Below, in pieces: positions 15,582 to 40,595 of a DNA stretch of 64,000 nucleotides (positions are counted from its first letter, which is position 1; every line of letters starts with the position of its first letter). Position numbers and translations under genes: made by a program. This DNA comes from an uncultured Gemmatimonadales bacterium (GTDB lineage Bacteria; Gemmatimonadota; Gemmatimonadetes; Gemmatimonadales; Gemmatimonadaceae). Location of the stretch: assembly GCA_963701965.1 (NCBI GenBank), contig OY969695.1, positions 2,624,001-2,688,000 of the forward strand. Reading direction: 5' to 3'. Below the pieces are notes generated by a model. That model was not told the DNA's origin and ran no database searches. It saw only the letters and a list, made by a program, of their open reading frames with translations.

Positions 15582-15991
15582 GAGCGTCGGTCGGACGGTC
15601 GCGACACAGGAGCAGGTTTCCTGCGCCGAGGAAAGTCCGGGCTCCGTAGGGCAGACTGCCAGGTAACGCCTGGGCGCGAGCGCGCAGTGGCGCACGTGAC
15701 GGACAGTGCCACAGAAATGACACCGCCGATGGCCTTCGTGGGCGACCCCGGAGGATCAGGCAAGGGCGAACCGGTGTGGGTAAGAGCCCACCGCGCTCCC
15801 GGTAACGGGGGCGGCATGGTAAACCCCAGTCGGAGCAAGGTCAAATAAGCGGCGAGGGGTGGCCCGCCCCGACCTAAGACGCCGCGGGTAGACTGCTGGA
15901 GGGTACGGGTGACCGTACCCCGAGAGAAATGACCGTCCGGACGGGGACTCGTGCTCCGTCCGACAGGACCCGGCTTACAGACCGGCGGCTC
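15582..15991 (+). ncRNA. rnpB: RNase P RNA (class A)
   Basis: GAGGAAAGTCCGGGCT, AGTGCCACAGAAA, GGTAAACCCC, GAGCAAG, AGAAATGA, ACAGGACCCGGCTTA; complementary ends forming P1. Confidence 0.97.
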
Positions 15992-16000
15992 ATCGCTCGG

Positions 16001-27781: not shown

Positions 27782-27811
27782 TTGCTTTATGCGCCTGTGG
27801 AGGCACATTAT
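27782..27811 (+). promoter_or_regulatory. Putative sigma70 promoter of the PQQ dehydrogenase operon
   Basis: TTGCTT-N18-CATTAT; predicted +1 at ~27817. Confidence 0.45.
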
Positions 27812-27816
27812 GTGGC

Positions 27817-27889
27817 GACAACAATAGGAAGCGCCCGTTGATCGGCCAGCCGGGTGTCGTGGAGAGTAATCTCCGCGGCACCCGCTCTG
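27817..27889 (+). ncRNA. Candidate structured RNA motif, copy A (5' leader of the PQQ dehydrogenase)
   Basis: Shared with 33285-33355; 15-bp stem with two U-G pairs and a GUAA tetraloop. Confidence 0.55.
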
Positions 27890-27957
27890 GCTTAGGGCCG
27901 TCAGGACGCAAGCAGTGTGTCGAGCGCGTTGTCAGCCGTCCAGAACCAGGAGGGGTC

Positions 27958-29661
27958 ATGCGCACCAGCCGGCTGCTCGTATCGAGTGCCGTGGGAGCAT
28001 TTCTCGCGACGACGGTGTTCGCGCAAGAACAGGTCGAGACGAAGACGAAGAAGGAGGCCGCCCCGACCTTCACCGCCGTTTCGGATGCCATGCTCCGCGA
28101 TGCCCGAGCGGATGCGAAGAACTGGCTCATGATCGGCCGCGACTACACGAACCAACAATGGTCGCCACTCACACAAATCAACGCCACCAACGTTCAGGGC
28201 CTGCGGGTGGCATGGATGTACCAGACCGGCATCTCGCGACTCGGGTCGTTCGAGACGAGTCCGGTGGTGGTGAATGGCGTGATGTACGTGACGACGCCAT
28301 ACAGTACCGTCATGGCCGTCAACGCGCGCACGGGAAAAGAGATCTGGCGCTATGAGCCGAAACTCGCGACGACGATTTTCTGTTGCGGACCGAACAACCG
28401 CGGCGTCGCCATCTCCGACAACACCGTGTACTTCGGCACGCTCGATGCGCGACTCATCGCGCTCGAGGCGCAGACCGGCAAGGTGAAGTGGAACGTGGCC
28501 GTCGCCGATCCCGACGCGGGATACAGCGAGACCCATGCGCCGCTCGTCATCGGCGACAAGGTCATCATCGGCATCTCCGGTGGCGAGTACGGCATTCGCG
28601 GATTCGTGCGGGCGTACAACAAGGAAACCGGCGAACCCGTGTGGACGACGTACACGACGTTCCAGGACAACTGGTTCGGGAAGTGGACGCCAAAGACTTG
28701 GGAAGGCGACTACTCGCTCAATCGGAACATCGACGCGGAGAAGGCCGATTCCGGCAAGTACGCCGATGCGTGGCAACGCGGCGGGGCCGGCGTCTGGATG
28801 AATCCCGCGTACGACGCCGCCACGAACCAGATCTTCGTGGCCAGCGGCAACCCGTCCCCCGACCTCGACGGCAGCGTCAGACCGGGGGACAATTTGTGTG
28901 CGGACTGCATCATCGCAATGGATGCGGGGACCGGGAAGATCACGTGGTACTATCAGGAAGTCCCACACGATGTGTGGGATCTCGACGCCGTCAGCCCGCC
29001 GGTCGTGGTGAAGTTGAAGGATGGGCGGACGGCGGTGGCCCAGGCCGGGAAGACGGCGTGGGTATACGTGCTCGATGCGAAGACCGGCAAGCTCATCCGC
29101 AAGTCGAAAGCGTTCAATCGCATCGAGAACATGTTCGCGCAGCCGACCGCCGACGGTGTCCGGATGCTCCCCGGCGCGAACGGCGGGTCGGAGTGGTCGC
29201 CGATGGCGGTCAATCCAACGCTCGGCTACGCGTACGTCATGGGTCTCGAGCAACCCATGCACTACATCACGCACAGCGCTCCGCTGACCAAGGGGCAACT
29301 GTGGCTCGGATCGGCGTTCAAGGCGGTGCCGGGCGAAGACCAATACGGCACCTACACGGCGATCGATCTCAATACGGGCGCCATCGCGTGGCAGAACAAG
29401 ACCGAGCAGCCGATGATCGGCGGCTCGCTGGCCACGGCGGGCAACCTCGTCTTCACGGGCGAGGGCAACGGCCATTTCGACGCGTTCGACGCACGCACCG
29501 GAAAGCTGTTGTGGCACTTCGCGGCGGGTGCCGGCTGCAACGCGCCCCCCGTGACCTACGAGCTCGATGGCAAGCAGTACATAGCAGCCGCCTGCGGCGG
29601 CAATTTCCAGCTCGGATATCCGTTGGGTGATGCCGTGTTGGTATTCACGCTTCCCCAATAG
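27958..29661 (+). CDS. PQQ-dependent alcohol dehydrogenase-family protein, probably lanthanide-binding
   Basis: Signal peptide, vicinal CC (FCCGPNNRG), GGEYG, HDVWDLDA (DxD), Trp-docking repeats. Confidence 0.9.
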   Translation: MRTSRLLVSSAVGAFLATTVFAQEQVETKTKKEAAPTFTAVSDAMLRDARADAKNWLMIGRDYTNQQWSPLTQINATNVQGLRVAWMYQTGISRLGSFETSPVVVNGVMYVTTPYSTVMAVNARTGKEIWRYEPKLATTIFCCGPNNRGVAISDNTVYFGTLDARLIALEAQTGKVKWNVAVADPDAGYSETHAPLVIGDKVIIGISGGEYGIRGFVRAYNKETGEPVWTTYTTFQDNWFGKWTPKTWEGDYSLNRNIDAEKADSGKYADAWQRGGAGVWMNPAYDAATNQIFVASGNPSPDLDGSVRPGDNLCADCIIAMDAGTGKITWYYQEVPHDVWDLDAVSPPVVVKLKDGRTAVAQAGKTAWVYVLDAKTGKLIRKSKAFNRIENMFAQPTADGVRMLPGANGGSEWSPMAVNPTLGYAYVMGLEQPMHYITHSAPLTKGQLWLGSAFKAVPGEDQYGTYTAIDLNTGAIAWQNKTEQPMIGGSLATAGNLVFTGEGNGHFDAFDARTGKLLWHFAAGAGCNAPPVTYELDGKQYIAAACGGNFQLGYPLGDAVLVFTLPQ

Positions 29662-29672
29662 GCCGGGCATCG

Positions 29673-30050
29673 ATGCGGCGGCTCGCGATCGGCGCGGCAC
29701 TCACCGTCGGGGCATTCGGGGTTCTGGCGCAGTCCTCAGACCCCGCGCCGACGAGCTTGGGCGGCCACTATTGGGGCCGCCTGAGTGCCGCCGAGAAGGA
29801 GTCGTACCTCACCGGTTTTCTTGCCGGTGCGGCCGCCGAGCAGGCGCGGGCCGGAGACAGCACGCGGGTCACCGGCGCCGCGATCGATGCGTTGCGTACC
29901 CGTGCGGCGCTGCGTTTTCGATTCTCGCCGAACGTGTATGCCGCGCAGATCGACGACTACTACTACTCGCGGCAGGATCGCCTCGACGTGCCGATTGTCG
30001 AGGCAATGATCGTGCTCAACGGCGCCATGCTGGAGCAGCAGCGGCGCTAA
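29673..30050 (+). CDS. Small exported hypothetical protein
   Basis: Signal peptide; lies within the operon. Confidence 0.7.
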   Translation: MRRLAIGAALTVGAFGVLAQSSDPAPTSLGGHYWGRLSAAEKESYLTGFLAGAAAEQARAGDSTRVTGAAIDALRTRAALRFRFSPNVYAAQIDDYYYSRQDRLDVPIVEAMIVLNGAMLEQQRR

Positions 30051-30077
30051 GTCCACACTTCGCTGCAGGAGAGCAAG

Positions 30078-31379
30078 ATGAAACGACTCGCTGTGTTGGG
30101 TTTCACCGCGTTTCTCGCCGTGGCTCACAATGCCCGTGCGCAATTGACGATGCAAATGAGTAACGGCTGGAACTTTACCTTCGCGGGCAACGTCAACGCT
30201 TTCTACGTCGAGCAGTGGGGCAACGCGCTCGCCAATGCGGGCCCCGGGGGCGCACCAGTCATCAACGGTGGACTCGTCGCGCAAGGCGAAGGCACGAACG
30301 CGAACATCCGCACGGGACTCCTGCCCGCGGCTGTGACATTCGACGCCAAAGGGAAGGAGGGCGATTTGCTGCTCGGCGTGCACTTCGGCTTTTTCCCGCA
30401 GATTCAAAACGGCGGTGATGGTCGCCTCACCGGGCAGTCCGGCAACATCCATGATCAGTTCGGCGCACAGATCGACATGCGCCAGGTCTATTTGACAGTC
30501 GGCGGCGATTGGGGTCAGATCCTCGCCGGTCGTGAGATCGGCCTCTATCAGCGCCAGAACATCCTGACGGACGCGACGCTCTTCGGCATCGGCGCGAGCG
30601 GTGGCAATCTGGGCGCCGGTGGGACGACGCTCGGCCGCATCGGATTCGGGTACGTCTATCCGAACTTCGAAGCGCAGATCACCTACAGCACGTCGGCGAC
30701 GAGCCCGCTGCAATTTGCGATCGGTGTCTTCCAGCCGAGTGAGGTCGGCGCCGCCGGGACGGCGTACGTGTACACGCCGCTGCCGCGCGTCGAGTCTGAG
30801 ATCTCGTACACGGGCAAGTTAGGCCAAGCCGAAGGCACGACGAACAAGTGGATGGTCTGGGTCAATGGCATGGTGCAGCAGGCGCAGAACGCGCCGACGG
30901 GTACGACGCCCAGCGGCGCGCCGGACACGACGACCAAGGTGACCTCGGCAGGCGTCGGCGGCGGCCTCAAGCTCGACTTCTCGCGTCTGTCGCTCGTCGG
31001 CTCCGGGTACTACGGCCGCGGCATCGGGACTGTCCTCATGTTCGGTGGCACGGCGATCGATGCCAATCCGGCCGGCGCGCAGGGGCGCATCGGCTACGGC
31101 TACATTGGCCAGGCCTCGTTCAAGCTCGATCCCAAGTGGACGCTCGTCGGCAGCTGGGGCGAGAGCATGACGACGGGCACCAATTTCGACAACGCCAACT
31201 TCGCGACCCAGGATGGCCCGCTCCTCAAGTACAACGCATTGGGAGTGGGTTCGCTCGTGTATCAAATGACGAAGTCTCTCAAGTGGGTCATCGAATACGA
31301 CTACACGGAGGCGGCAAACCAAGCCCACCAGAAGCAAGTCGCGAATCAGGTGGCGACGGGCTTCATGGTCTTCTTCTAA
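30078..31379 (+). CDS. Outer-membrane porin
   Basis: Signal peptide, amphipathic beta strands, C-terminal Phe. Confidence 0.85.
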   Translation: MKRLAVLGFTAFLAVAHNARAQLTMQMSNGWNFTFAGNVNAFYVEQWGNALANAGPGGAPVINGGLVAQGEGTNANIRTGLLPAAVTFDAKGKEGDLLLGVHFGFFPQIQNGGDGRLTGQSGNIHDQFGAQIDMRQVYLTVGGDWGQILAGREIGLYQRQNILTDATLFGIGASGGNLGAGGTTLGRIGFGYVYPNFEAQITYSTSATSPLQFAIGVFQPSEVGAAGTAYVYTPLPRVESEISYTGKLGQAEGTTNKWMVWVNGMVQQAQNAPTGTTPSGAPDTTTKVTSAGVGGGLKLDFSRLSLVGSGYYGRGIGTVLMFGGTAIDANPAGAQGRIGYGYIGQASFKLDPKWTLVGSWGESMTTGTNFDNANFATQDGPLLKYNALGVGSLVYQMTKSLKWVIEYDYTEAANQAHQKQVANQVATGFMVFF

Positions 31380-31457
31380 GACAAATCCACCAGGCGTTTC
31401 ACGGCGTACCGGATGCAGTACTCCTTGCTCGTTCATCTTCACATCACGGGGCAGCTC

Positions 31458-33276
31458 ATGAATCAGCTCAACCGCCCGATGCGGATCGGTGCGTTGGTAG
31501 CCGGTTCACTGGCATTGTGCGCCGCAACCGCGGTCGCACAGGATCAGTTGGCCGACATGACGAAAAATGCCAACCAGTGGGTGATGACGGGTCGGACCTA
31601 TGACCTACAGCGTTATAGCCCGCTGGCGCAGATCACCGCCGCCAACGTCGCACACCTCCACCCGGCGTGGAGTTTCTCGACCGGCACGCTGCGCGGACAC
31701 GAGGGCAACCCGCTCGTGATCGGCAGCGTCATGTACGTGCACTCCTCATTCCCCAACAAGGTCTACGCGCTCGATCTCACCAAGCCCGGCGCGCCCCAGA
31801 TCTGGCAGTACACGCCAGAGCAGGACGCCAACGTGATCCCGATCGCGTGCTGCGACGTGGTCAACCGCGGCCTGGCCTATCACCCCAGCGGCAAGCTGTA
31901 CATCGAGCTGCTGCAGGGGGACTTGTTGGCCCTCGACGCCAAGACCGGGAAGAAGATCTTCCAGGTCAAGAGCGCCGATTTCCACAAGGGCGAGACGATG
32001 ACCAACGCCCCGCTCGTGGTGAAGAACGTCGTGCTCACGGGGATCTCGGGCGGGGAGTTCGGCGTCCGGGGCCGCATCACGGCCTTCAATGCCATGGACG
32101 GCCATGAACTGTGGCGCGGGTACTCGACCGGTCCGGACGCCGAGGTCAAGATCACTGGCGTGCCGAACGCGAACTATCCGTCGATGCAGGGCAAGGATCT
32201 CGGTGTCTCGACGTGGCAGGGGGATGAGTGGCAGCGCGGCGGCGGCACGACGTGGGGATGGTACTCCTACGATCCGCAACTCAACCTGTTCTACTACGGC
32301 TCGGGCAATCCGGGGACGTGGAACCCCGATCAGCGGCCGGGCGACAACAAGTGGTCGATGTCGATCTGGGCCCGGAACCCGGAGACGGGCGAAGTGAAGT
32401 GGGTCTATCAGAATGACCCCGCACGATGCGTGGGACTATGACGGCGTGAACGAGATGATCTTGAGCGACCAGACGATCGGCGGGAAGCCCGTCAAGGCGC
32501 TGACGCACTTCGATCGCAACGGGTTCGGCTACACGCTCGATCGGACGAATGGGAAAGTCTTGGTGGCCAACCCCTACGGGCCGACGAACTGGGCGAAGTC
32601 GGTCGATCTGACGACGGGACGGCCGGTGGAAGATGCCTCGAAGCGGACGACGGCCAAGGGGAACACGGAAGGGATTTGCCCGGCGGCGATCGGGTTCAAG
32701 GATCAGCAGCCGGCGGCGTACTCGCCGAAGACGCAGCTCTTCTACGTGCCGGTGAACAACATCTGCATGGACTACGAGGGCGTGGAAGTGAAGTACGCGG
32801 CGGGGCAGCCGTACGTGGGCGCGATCGTGCGGATGTTCCCGGGCCCGGGCGGCAACCGCGGGCGCTTCATCGCCTGGGATCCGCGCCTGGGGAAAGTGAT
32901 GTGGGAGGACAAGGAGAATCTCGCGGCCTACGGCGGGGTGCTGACGACTGGCGGCGATCTCGTCTTCTACGGGACGATGGAAGGGTGGTTGAAGGCGGTG
33001 GATCCGAAGACGGGCAAGCTCTTGTGGCAGTACAAGACGCCGTCGGGGATCATCGGGAACCCGATGACGTATGTGGGGCCCGATGGGAAGCAGTACGTGG
33101 CAGTGTTGTCGGGGATCGGCGGGTGGGCCGGGATCGGCGTGGCCGCCGGGATCGGGGCCGAGGATCCGACCGCGGGCCTGGGCGCGCTCGGCGCGTTCGG
33201 GGACGCCGGATCCTTCACGACGCAAGGTGGTGTCCTGACCGTGTTCTCACTCGACGGTCCGGCGATGGCGAAGTAA
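31458..33276 (+). CDS. xoxF: Lanthanide-dependent methanol dehydrogenase XoxF (+1 frameshift at ~32412, likely sequencing error)
   Basis: WSFSTGTLRGHEG, ACCDVVNRG, GGEFGVRG, RPGDNKWSM, HDAWDYDGVNE (DYD); followed by xoxJ/xoxG-like genes; no mxaI in the window. Confidence 0.9.
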
Positions 33277-33284
33277 AAGCAAGA

Positions 33285-33355
33285 GACAACAAGAAAGCGC
33301 CCGTTGATGGACCAGCCGGGTGTCGCGGAGAGCAATCTCCGCGGCACCCGGTCTG
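33285..33355 (+). ncRNA. Candidate structured RNA motif, copy B (xoxF-xoxJ intergenic)
   Basis: 16-bp stem at 33316-33351 with a GCAA tetraloop; 5' GACAACAA...AAGCGCCCGTTGAT shared with copy A. Confidence 0.55.
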
Positions 33356-33400
33356 ACATGAAGACTAGATTTCCTGTGAGGACCAGGCTGCGAGGGTTTG

Positions 33401-34243
33401 GTGGATCGAATACTACACACGCTCTCCGTCGCGCTCTTTCTTTCACTCGCCGGCATCGAGGCCGGGGCGCAACAAGCGCAACTATCCGGACCGCTCTTGC
33501 TCCGGGTCTGCGCCGATCCCAACGATCTGCCCGTCTCGAACGACAAGCGCGAGGGCTACGCCAACAAGATCGCCGAGCTCATTGCCAGCGACCTCGGCGC
33601 GCAGGTGACATACACGTGGTGGCCCAGCCGGCGCGGGTACATTCGGAATACGCTGCGCGCTGGGGATTGCGACGTCGTCATCGACGTGCCGGCGCAGTAT
33701 GAGCTGGTCGCGGCCACCAAGCCGTACTACAGATCGGTCTATGTGGCGGTCAGCCGAAAAGACCGCGATCTCCGCATCAGCTCGCTCGACGATCCCCGAC
33801 TCAAGACGCTCAAGGTCGGTGTCAGCGAGATCGGCGACAACTATACGCAGACACCGCCGGCCGACGCGCTCTCCGCGCGCGGGATCTCGAGCAACCTCGT
33901 GTGGTTCACGTCGTTCTACGACCCCGACCATCACCCCGGGGACATCGTGAACGCGGTCGCCGACGGCAAGGTCGACGTCGCGTTCGTGTGGGGGCCGTTC
34001 GCGGGATATTTCGCCAAACAGTCGGCCGCACCGCTCGACATCACCTTGTTACCCGACAGCGACGCCATCACCGGCAAGCAACTGGCATTCACCCAAGCCA
34101 TGGGCGTCCGCCGCAGCGATCGCGAGCTGATGGATAAGCTCAACAATGTCATCGAGCGCCGGAAGACGGACATCGACAAGATCTTGCATGACTACGGCGT
34201 CCCGACGCTGCCGATCACCGCGACGCAGGCCGACCGCAAGTAG
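33401..34243 (+). CDS. xoxJ: XoxJ/MxaJ-like periplasmic binding protein
   Basis: LRVCADPNDLP, CDVVI, TKPYYRS, VWGP, ILHDYGVP. Confidence 0.88.
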   Translation: MDRILHTLSVALFLSLAGIEAGAQQAQLSGPLLLRVCADPNDLPVSNDKREGYANKIAELIASDLGAQVTYTWWPSRRGYIRNTLRAGDCDVVIDVPAQYELVAATKPYYRSVYVAVSRKDRDLRISSLDDPRLKTLKVGVSEIGDNYTQTPPADALSARGISSNLVWFTSFYDPDHHPGDIVNAVADGKVDVAFVWGPFAGYFAKQSAAPLDITLLPDSDAITGKQLAFTQAMGVRRSDRELMDKLNNVIERRKTDIDKILHDYGVPTLPITATQADRK

Positions 34244-34265
34244 TCACCAACTCTCCCCAACGCAT

Positions 34266-34691
34266 ATGCACATTTTTCTTGCCATCCTTTCCTTGGCGCT
34301 CCCGCCCGACAGCCTCGGCGTGAATGCCGTCGTGTACCAGGGCTGGAAAATGTTCGAGGTCTATTGCACGCGCTGCCACGGCGAGGATGCGGTCGGTTCG
34401 AGCTTCGCGCCCGCCCTCAAGAAGTCGGTGGGGCCTGACGGCACCATCGATCACAAGGCCTTCTGGCTGACGGTGACGAATGGCCGCCCGGGCAAGGGTA
34501 TGCCGACGTGGGGCAACCTGCTGTCGCCGGAGCAAAAGGAAGACGTCTGGAATTACCTGCGCGCGCGCGCCGTCGGCCATCTGGCGCCCGGCCGTCCGCA
34601 TCTCATCAAGGGCGCGAACCGGGACTCGACGGCGTTTCCGCCGGCCCAGGGAAACGACACGACGTTCGTTCCGCCGTTCTTGAAGGAGTGA
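34266..34691 (+). CDS. xoxG: Cytochrome c (XoxG-like electron acceptor)
   Basis: CTRCH heme motif, GMP axial Met; position after xoxFJ. Confidence 0.75.
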   Translation: MHIFLAILSLALPPDSLGVNAVVYQGWKMFEVYCTRCHGEDAVGSSFAPALKKSVGPDGTIDHKAFWLTVTNGRPGKGMPTWGNLLSPEQKEDVWNYLRARAVGHLAPGRPHLIKGANRDSTAFPPAQGNDTTFVPPFLKE

Positions 34692-39935: not shown

Positions 39936-40595
39936 CGCACTAACTCCACCGGTGGTGGGACGAACGCAGGCTCGGCGGGATCGCGGCTACTGAACGCGCC
40001 ATCGGCGCGATCCGGGATGTTGGTGCCCGGATGGCCGTTGAGAAAGGTGGACAGCATCCGGTACCCGAACTCGGTGAGCGCGGATTCAGGATGAAATTGC
40101 ACGCCGACGGTCAGGATGCACGCGGTGCGCCACGGCCATGATCTCGCCGGCCGGAGAGAACGCCGTGACCCGCAACTCCGGGGGCAGCGCGTCAGCCTCA
40201 ATGATCAGCGAGTGGTAACGCGTCGCGCGGAACGGCGACGGCAGGCCGGCGAATACGCTGGTGCCGTCGTGGGTCACGAGGGACACCTTGCCGTGCATTG
40301 GCCGCGTAGCGCGCACAATGCGGCCGCCGTAGGCCTCGCCAATGCATTGGTGACCGAGGCACACGCCGAGGATGGGGATCGTGGGCTCGAACCGTCGGAC
40401 GACATCGGTGGAGATTCCGGCCTCGGCTGGCGTGCAGGGCCCGGGCGACACGATGATGTGTGTGGGCGCCATCGCCGCGATCTCATCGAGCGTGACCGCA
40501 TCGTGCCGGCGGACGACCGCGTCGTGGCCCAGCTCGCGGACGTAGCGCGCCAGGTTGTAGACGAACGAGTCGTAGTTGTCGATGAGTAGGATCAC
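39932..40595 (-). CDS. pabA: Aminodeoxychorismate synthase glutaminase subunit (+1 frameshift at ~40114)
   Basis: IDNYDSF, SPGP, GVCLGHQ, RYHSL; GVQFHPES in the next frame. Confidence 0.9.

Follow-up and report, generated by a model that had tools for sequence, protein, structure and literature searches.

The window analysed here, a 64,000-nucleotide stretch of contig OY969695.1 from an uncultured member of the Gemmatimonadales, carries a plus-strand operon with two PQQ-dependent dehydrogenase genes. A ~72-nt block occurs twice in it, once in the leader (copy A) and once between xoxF and xoxJ (copy B).

27782..27809, plus strand: predicted sigma-70-type promoter (TTGCTT, 16 nt, CACATT), kept in the genus
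27817..27850, plus strand: copy A, genus-specific 5' segment; exact matches confined to this genus among 151 family genomes
27851..27884, plus strand: copy A, conserved hairpin of 15 bp with two U-G pairs and a GUAA loop, in the leader of the first PQQ dehydrogenase
27958..29661, plus strand: PQQ-dependent alcohol dehydrogenase; TIGR03075 above cut-off, D-x-D (WDLDA) lanthanide-type motif
29673..31379, plus strand: ORFs of 125 and 433 aa without a family match ("porin-like" is our own label)
31413..33276, plus strand: xoxF-type methanol dehydrogenase with a WDYDG motif, in two frames
33285..33314, plus strand: copy B, A-type 5' segment, at a B site in this genome only
33315..33352, plus strand: copy B, xoxF-xoxJ hairpin of 17 bp with a GCAA loop and a B-type 3' flank
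33398..34691, plus strand: xoxJ (TIGR03871 above cut-off) and a c-type cytochrome, assigned as xoxG by position

Two copies of a structured repeat in one operon

The D-x-D motif is present in both dehydrogenases, the first of which has 6zcv as its best solved relative, and in this assembly a single surplus base near 32413 splits xoxF between two frames. Copy A begins 8 nt past the CACATT hexamer (27804-27809), which TTGCTT precedes by 16 nt, and comparable TTGC..CA.ATT pairs lie upstream of the orthologous gene in other genera. The original prediction had placed the beginning of copy A at the promoter's +1; a consensus promoter scanner called no promoter here, so we can only infer the operon's +1. 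Copy B starts, as had been noted, 9 nt past the xoxF TAA (33274-33276).

The two copies agree at 65 of 73 aligned positions, and their differences include the base pair (U-G or C-G) and the loop (GUAA or GCAA) originally described. BLASTN of the repeat against the whole 5.12-Mb genome matched the copies at E=8e-17 and returned no third one; rather than being scattered genome-wide, both copies lie at this operon. Their plus-strand folds reach -47.1 and -41.2 kcal/mol for A and B, respectively (z=-4.9 and -6.7), and 0 of 200 shuffles were as stable. A further stem proposed between CAAC and GTTG has to be given up, being absent from both full-length minimum-energy folds, with CAAC not preserved in other A copies; the 5' part has a better partner in the 5' arm of the hairpin itself. 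The hairpin of copy A scores 43.4 bits against a hairpin profile whose training set includes it, while that of copy B has the top genome-wide score against a pair profile from whose training the copies of this genome were withheld. The other high-scoring stems in this genome are coding or tRNA-adjacent and therefore do not constitute a genome-wide motif family, and no such motif was seen in rRNA flanks inspected by eye. On the minus strand, a terminator-like match at 33306-33287 is one of 5, with 5.4 expected.

Conservation of the hairpin and of the leader segment

In relatives, the hairpin (15-17 bp, GC-rich) lies 19-76 nt downstream of the xoxF stop. By our reading of the scan output, it occupies the orthologous xoxF-xoxJ gap in 38 of the 54 loci with an xoxF at least 70% identical to that of this genome, and none of 19 more distant xoxF-xoxJ pairs has it; there were 119 other xoxJ matches, 80 of which were fetched, with xoxF directly upstream in 73. 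Carriers span 14 genera in two families of Gemmatimonadales, all within one XoxF clade (SH-aLRT 99 in a quick tree), and one hairpin site per genome is the rule (13 of 15 genomes, with two sites in one and none in another). At ~20 loci the xoxF stop is followed by a different hairpin before the conserved one, which often lies behind a TAnnnT hexamer. Four loci with AGGGGCGGG hairpins were not counted as carriers because genomes of one genus have such hairpins at 3-6 sites each, behind genes that are unrelated. An apparent "third copy" in four genus relatives was dropped, as it lies inside an apparent coding frame, and a loose phylum-level pattern was uninformative, matching 382 of 401 genomes.

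Homologues of the hairpin covary strongly. In a 42-sequence alignment, which leaves out two long-stem variants (L256, L257), three g86 variants and three near-duplicates, 96.5% of cells pair and 11 of 15 pairs show two-sided changes; covariation is 0.54, against 0.22 in shuffled alignments (0/500) and at most 0.12 in slid ones. Core stem cells hold 40 G-U and 0 A-C combinations, and thus the plus-strand RNA is the folding strand. Invariant G-C pairs and a recurrent U-G pair mark the stem, the arm spacing varies, and the apex is free to change, so that, judged from the alignment, the widely conserved unit is a single hairpin with a freely varying apex and is not aptamer-like. Stem likeness across families reaches 11.3 of 13, against 6.1 for shuffles, among sequences chosen by the same motif; for the types furthest apart it is only slightly above shuffles (6.6 versus 6.1 of 12). 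Along the XoxF tree the stem sequence changes step by step, for the most part in transitions via G-U, and in some sublineages it has been replaced. A peptide encoded across the hairpin was rejected, since loop lengths shift the frame among homologues. Rfam gave no gathering-level match in the window or in 20 homologous loci, generic hairpin matches falling far below cut-off, and in a literature search confined to main texts, mostly outside the subscription journals, no description of the element was found. The original picture of a conserved, operon-specific, plus-strand structured RNA is supported, as neither of the outcomes that would have refuted it, copies scattered regardless of gene context or homologues lacking covariation, was seen.

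The 5' part of the block has a far narrower distribution. The ~34-nt segment is present in all seven leader (A) copies of one genus and, among B copies, in this genome's only; it is absent from the five closest B copies, from other genera examined and from all eight leaders of the orthologous gene in other genera, and was not found in viral contigs. Across the genus, 58-61 of 67-68 nt of the A-type leader are identical, compared with 48-50% at the adjacent gene's four-fold sites, and the leader alignment contains two compensatory pairs. By this comparison, conservation of the leader far exceeds that of neutral sites, which indicates that purifying selection on the 5' segment is strong; the segment's distribution indicates that it is under selection in the leader position only. 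Because it occurs in all A copies and in just one B copy, local copying from A to B is likely, presumably onto the xoxF-xoxJ site of this genome, where copy B has an A-type 5' end and a B-type 3' flank. A recent copying event would more simply account for the segment in both copies, although as to direction an ancestral B form, retained here and lost in the sister lineage, is also possible.

Within the segment, positions 27831-27840 are predicted to pair with 27847-27857 (helix P1, -13.1 kcal/mol), an alternative helix that takes in part of the hairpin's 5' arm. In all seven nascent transcripts the lowest-energy fold is P1 until the 3' arm appears; for the full-length RNA its equilibrium weight is close to nil. 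None of its paired bases differs among the seven copies, changes being confined to its loop and the unpaired 5' end; it shows no covariation, and shuffled 5' segments pair equally well in 8-28% of trials (p 0.08-0.28). Pairing of the 5' segment with the 3' flank in an outer helix beats shuffles in two near-identical copies of five (p 0.03-0.04), the others giving p 0.2-0.3. A leader-peptide attenuator was rejected: the segment's TTG frame spans 18 aa or 87 aa or is fused to the gene, and its ribosome site is weak (-3.5 to -4.2 versus -10 to -13 kcal/mol, and -0.2 in copy B).

A proposed leaky terminator and competing explanations

The best explanation, about evenly balanced between right and wrong, is that the hairpin between xoxF and xoxJ is an internal terminator that leaks and also stabilises the 3' end, with a leader copy in one genus and a segment copied from A to B. 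Some polymerases would stop at the GC-rich stem and its broken U tail, and the stem would then shield the xoxF mRNA from 3'-5' decay; the remaining polymerases would read on into xoxJG, leaving more xoxF mRNA than xoxJG mRNA. More tentatively, P1 in the leader may form first during transcription and delay the hairpin, a delay that might tune read-through into the whole operon as a kinetic attenuator requiring no ligand. The setting of stoichiometry, one of the roles originally offered, is thus the best reading, while the riboswitch option, which drew on the conservation of the 5' part in both copies, is weakened by the absence of that part from the closest B copies and from the other genera examined. 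The original remark that no U tract follows holds for the two copies here (3 U in 8 nt each) but not across homologues, whose tails are U-enriched yet broken, in GC-rich genomes (mean 3.7 U in 8 nt; at least 4 U in 25 of 45). At least 5 U are reached in just 9 of 45 tails, which speaks against a terminator. At the ~20 loci with two hairpins a pure 3' stabiliser would be redundant, and the cross-family stem likeness appears to be more than a terminator needs. RNase III was not found in this 95%-complete genome and was detected in 1 of 61 genomes of the order, so the stems would not be cut by it, and a model of RNase III processing stems failed.

An attenuator that responds to a signal would be an unlikely alternative for the leader copy. 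Terminator/antiterminator attenuators include the BglG RAT, ANTAR and riboswitch expression platforms, and copy A would resemble them in that, close behind a predicted promoter, P1 is predicted to capture the 5' arm of the terminator. Here, a ligand (lanthanide, PQQ or a C1 metabolite) or a protein would stabilise P1 and so block the terminator, with xoxJG under the same switch in this genome. Mutually exclusive helices predicted directly after the predicted promoter, strong purifying selection on the 5' segment, P1 paired bases free of changes, four U after the stem in one A copy and the D-x-D motifs of both dehydrogenases would suit such a switch, but the 5' segment is limited to one genus, orthologous leaders elsewhere lack it, the loop that an aptamer would use varies, and Rfam offers no match. 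Riboswitches would be expected to keep unpaired nucleotides of a multi-element aptamer across taxa; here the apex varies freely, and no aptamer is recognisable. The BglG-type CAT RNA-binding domain (PF03123) was not found in the genome, on which the BglG/SacY RAT model failed, there is a single NusG, and the weak TTG site opens frames of unrelated length. ANTAR targets consist of two tandem hairpins with A1/G4 hexaloops; the genome has one ANTAR-domain gene, but each copy has a single hexaloop, with G4 in this genome's two copies and not in five others, and that model failed as well. The fuller scenario, in which a lanthanide, PQQ or C1 attenuator was born in one Gemmatimonadaceae genus by copying the terminator to the leader, adding an antiterminator strand and spreading to xoxJG by gene conversion, is decidedly doubtful.

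Rather improbable, too, is a hairpin that caps the 5' end of a transcript arising from an internal promoter or from an RNase E/G cut in the A/U-rich linker, thereby protecting the xoxJG mRNA and, in this genus, also that of the operon. This would unify A and B, both 5' of a gene, and 17 of 47 copies have a TAnnnT hexamer 10-23 nt ahead of the hairpin (shuffled mean 4.2, most copies being kin), but the hexamer is missing before copy B here and in most single-hairpin genera, and U-enriched tails are not expected of a cap. Moreover, the fold of copy A leaves 11-14 unpaired 5' bases, and 5' protection usually tolerates fewer. The hexamer's letters can often also be read as the RNase E motif RNWUU, as given in PMC5222698, the genome has two RNase E/G-family genes and no RNase J was found in it, and the cip-cel operon offers a precedent in stem-loops that, according to PMC10311766, are cleavage signals and protect both ends. 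A sequence-specific site for a protein co-ordinating the two dehydrogenase units is very unlikely. Invariant G-C pairs, the recurrent U-G pair and cross-family likeness above shuffles are compatible with it, as is a similar stem ~180 nt upstream of the start of an unrelated xoxF1-type gene at one metagenome locus; that case reaches only ~20 bits, however, by our queries 109 of 119 metagenome pattern matches do not lie near xox genes, and there is no match near 12 Acidobacteriota xoxF-like loci. The stepwise drift and replacement of the stem also argue against a protein site, and the variable arm spacing against a DNA operator. That A and B are released as small RNAs acting in trans through the conserved 5' segment is highly improbable: copy A, with its predicted promoter and 3' hairpin, would form a ~70-nt unit, and copy B resembles a 3'-UTR-derived sRNA, but most B copies lack the segment, which is itself predicted to be paired, and neither the outer helix nor a target is supported. 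There is equally little to recommend the idea that the B hairpin alone matters, and does so as a generic stem, with copy A and the shared 5' part as neutral leftovers; similar GC-rich hairpins do arise by chance in many metagenome contigs, but the leader's conservation and its two compensatory pairs are not those of neutral sequence.

Significance and closest known systems

According to PMC10875860, soil and weathered rock commonly harbour XoxF systems of Gemmatimonadetes, which have had no biochemical study. Under the leaky-terminator reading, a conserved RNA element likely sets the ratio of enzyme to partner; in an OM43 methylotroph, the xoxJG transcript level is below that of xoxF, as reported in PMC5120137. 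Should the leader copy be signal-responsive, it would amount to an RNA switch in lanthanide-dependent metabolism, none of which was found described in literature searched mostly outside the subscription journals; if the attenuator is real, this would be a new switch for lanthanide-dependent methylotrophy with its parent element still in place. Otherwise, the element is an ordinary, well-supported operon stem-loop with an instructive duplication history.

Internal terminators are described in PMC9045158 as having a long GC stem and low U, and the long GC stem here, with its reduced U tail, fits that description. Those of ABC-importer operons also lie inside an operon, in the gap that follows the gene presumed to have the highest expression, but here the phylum and operon are different, the stem is kept across families, a second copy lies in the leader, and the role is predicted. 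The clostridial cip-cel SRPS stem-loops (PMC4423207, PMC10311766) occupy orthologous intergenic sites, mostly with no U run, and accompany unequal transcript levels; the hairpins described here are likewise orthologous intergenic stem-loops kept across species, although the nucleases there are other ones. A different kind of comparison is with repeated palindromes. REP/BIME elements are short extragenic GC-rich palindromes with many copies per genome; the hairpin is alike as a repeated element of that kind, but the REP/BIME model failed, as a carrier genome has one copy or two, in fixed orthologous positions.

The repeat and its operon

The original prediction described a ~72-nt block occurring twice, and the repeat is indeed present, with 65 of 73 positions identical between the two blocks (E=8e-17). 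Nor is it a scattered, generic repeat; a search of the whole 5.12-Mb host genome (67% GC, single contig) found exactly two copies, A and B, each comprising a 5' segment and a hairpin. The following features bear on their setting:

27817-27889: copy A, in the leader of the first PQQ dehydrogenase gene
33285-33355: copy B, in the gap between xoxF and xoxJ
Operon, plus strand, in order: PQQ alcohol dehydrogenase, 125-aa ORF, 433-aa ORF, xoxF, xoxJ, c-type cytochrome, pentapeptide-repeat protein, beta-propeller
37565-63977: H4MPT/methanofuran-type C1 genes (RFAP synthase-like, mch, fhcD, fhcA/B-like) and a SoxYZ-like carrier

The hairpin within each copy has 15-17 bp and a GNRA loop, and the plus-strand folds lie well under shuffled sequences (z -4.9 and -6.7); the second stem once proposed from CAAC/GTTG is not conserved. 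With the exception of RNase P (class A RNA, 15583-15993), Rfam gave no gathering-level match in the window, and both copy sites drew generic hairpin matches alone, all under the cut-off.

The operon is adjoined by H4MPT-pathway genes, D-x-D motifs are seen in both dehydrogenases, and the first dehydrogenase has its near relatives in Gemmatimonadaceae/Gemmatimonadales assemblies; xoxF clusters of this type are already known from the phylum (PMC10875860, in excerpt). A second, intact xoxF elsewhere in the genome (C1:646.5-648.3 kb) lacks the repeat element and is 96% identical to the window xoxF, with differences in patches. Relative to it, the window xoxF carries one extra A at 32413, either an assembly error or a real break. 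A trpG-like ORF (40086-40595) also appears to end prematurely.

An old hairpin with a young 5' segment

The xoxF-xoxJ hairpin is old. A search of 401 genomes from the phylum returned xoxJ in 93, and among 80 of the 119 other xoxJ matches taken for survey, xoxF lies directly upstream in 73. A hairpin with the core GGYGYCG/CGRCRCC occurs in 38 of the 54 loci whose xoxF shares 70% identity or more with the host's, 19-76 nt past the xoxF stop where the stop call is reliable; three others have a related variant, 13 have other stems, and the core is found in none of the 19 more distant pairs (xoxF <70% identical). Its carriers span 14 genera, two families and one XoxF clade (SH-aLRT 99, quick tree), within which a few sublineages have replaced it. 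Covariation, on which the proposal of a structured RNA hung, is present among homologs: in 42 aligned copies, 96.5% of cells are paired and 11 of 15 pairs show two-sided changes, with a score of 0.54 that exceeds 500 of 500 shuffles and every slid control, although kinship among copies inflates these counts. Core cells hold 40 G-U and no A-C combinations, which argues for selection on the plus-strand RNA. The 3' tails average 3.7 U per 8 nt, with U as first base in nearly all.

A covariance-model search of 95 + 29 sources gave scores above ~30 bits solely in the A leaders and the gap between xoxF and xoxJ, and neither this model nor pattern searches found a match near Acidobacteriota or betaproteobacterial xoxF loci. 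REP identity was rejected: in 13 of the 15 genomes searched, type-specific patterns match a single site. A metagenome pattern scan gave at least 119 matches (39 of 119 with short flanks); among those listed, nine were orthologous sites, 109 by our own queries lay away from xox genes, and one was upstream of an unrelated xoxF1-type gene. This last match, at locus L163 (2495-2544), is a similar stem scoring ~20 bits against the model; the gene, whose best solved relative is 7o6z, starts ~180 nt further on, is followed by xoxJ and has a homologue of the 433-aa ORF near. In one genus (L301-L304, L311), AGGGGCGGG-type hairpins are repeated 3' of several genes, one of them behind a gene read from sequence as fae and ahead of mtd.

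The 5' segment is young. It accompanies 7 of 7 A copies seen (this genome, three further genomes, G001, G003 and G005, and loci L166, L189 and L206), and at 0-1 mismatches is confined to one genus among 151 genomes of the family; the element was absent from all 8 orthologous-gene leaders examined in other genera. (The 401- and 151-genome tallies take in two unpublished genomes, G012 and G704, and no claim is made on either singly.) The five closest B copies (G001, G003, G004, L108, L204) have the hairpin and lack the segment. This genome's B combines an A-type 5' end with a B-type 3' flank, and its GACAACA is common only to its own A; A-to-B conversion would most simply account for the segment there. 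The patchy identity of the second xoxF indicates that such homogenisation occurs in this genome, and agreement between A and B is thus weak evidence of function. Similarity among the A copies argues strongly for function: they are mutually identical at 58-61 of 67-68 nt, whereas four-fold sites of the adjoining gene are 48-50% identical.

The segment is predicted to form a competing helix, P1 (GCGCCCG-UUG with CAG-C-CGGGUGU; -13.1 kcal/mol), that occupies the hairpin's 5' arm. For each of the seven nascent RNAs, P1 has the lowest folding energy as long as the 3' arm does not yet exist, and all sequence changes fall in its loop or upstream. It shows no covariation, does not stand out strongly from shuffled sequences (p 0.08-0.28) and has negligible weight in the full-length ensemble. 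Nearby, a promoter-spacer palindrome (27791-27805) reads GCCT..AGGC here versus GCCC..GGGC in relatives, a two-sided change; it is a possible operator or hairpin.

Readings of the element

No description of the element was found in the literature searched, and PMC12530212, in the part available, deals with other riboswitch classes. Functionally, the element would belong to a known kind; it is the leader duplicate with its competing helix that is worth testing. We give roughly an even chance to a reading in which B would be a leaky terminator that also acts as a 3' barrier, with A the same type of stem under kinetic control by the predicted P1. This reading draws on the weak U tails, on precedents and on the nuclease set. 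For example, internal terminators that set operon ratios likewise have long GC stems and poor U tails (excerpts of PMC9045158), and in the cip-cel operon orthologous stem-loops set the ratios through stabilisation (excerpts of PMC4423207, PMC10311766). In OM43, xoxJG levels are under those of xoxF (PMC5120137, in part), and strain AP8 shows a difference between xoxG and xoxJ (PMC7907005, in part). As for nucleases, the genome encodes two RNase E/G genes, and neither RNase J nor RNase III was found in it; RNase III (PF00636) was found in one of 61 Gemmatimonadales genomes examined (this one and 60 others), a scarcity on which a literature search found nothing.

The main difficulty for the terminator/3'-barrier reading is a set of ~20 loci where the conserved hairpin stands second, behind another hairpin and a linker rich in A/U whose letters include TAnnnT or RNWUU (the latter read with excerpts of PMC5222698). 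This arrangement would suit a 5'-end element, which we nonetheless regard as improbable. It is also unlikely, if slightly less so, that the leader is a signal-responsive switch; the architecture fits, but the range is narrow, the loop is variable, and BglG, ANTAR, NusG-paralogue and leader-peptide models each failed their tests. The features of ANTAR, RAT and REP elements used here, and the tolerance of 5' hairpins for unpaired bases, are general knowledge.

Other motifs near xoxF starts

Ahead of the xoxF start, the two families of the hairpin-bearing XoxF clade share a separate conserved motif, GARCGNRGYCCNCC (L021:11501-11514, L022:11477-11490, L025:12490-12503 and 26 of loci L218-L295), flanked mostly by variable stems. 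It is absent ahead of the window's xoxF, has no Rfam match, and yields no consensus fold by plain alignment. It is possibly a more general xoxF regulator and merits separate study. Finally, xoxF starts in L227-L295 have a conserved pyrimidine-rich stretch ahead of the ribosome site (CACCCTTCATC..GAGGTCAG.TATG), with which it could pair.
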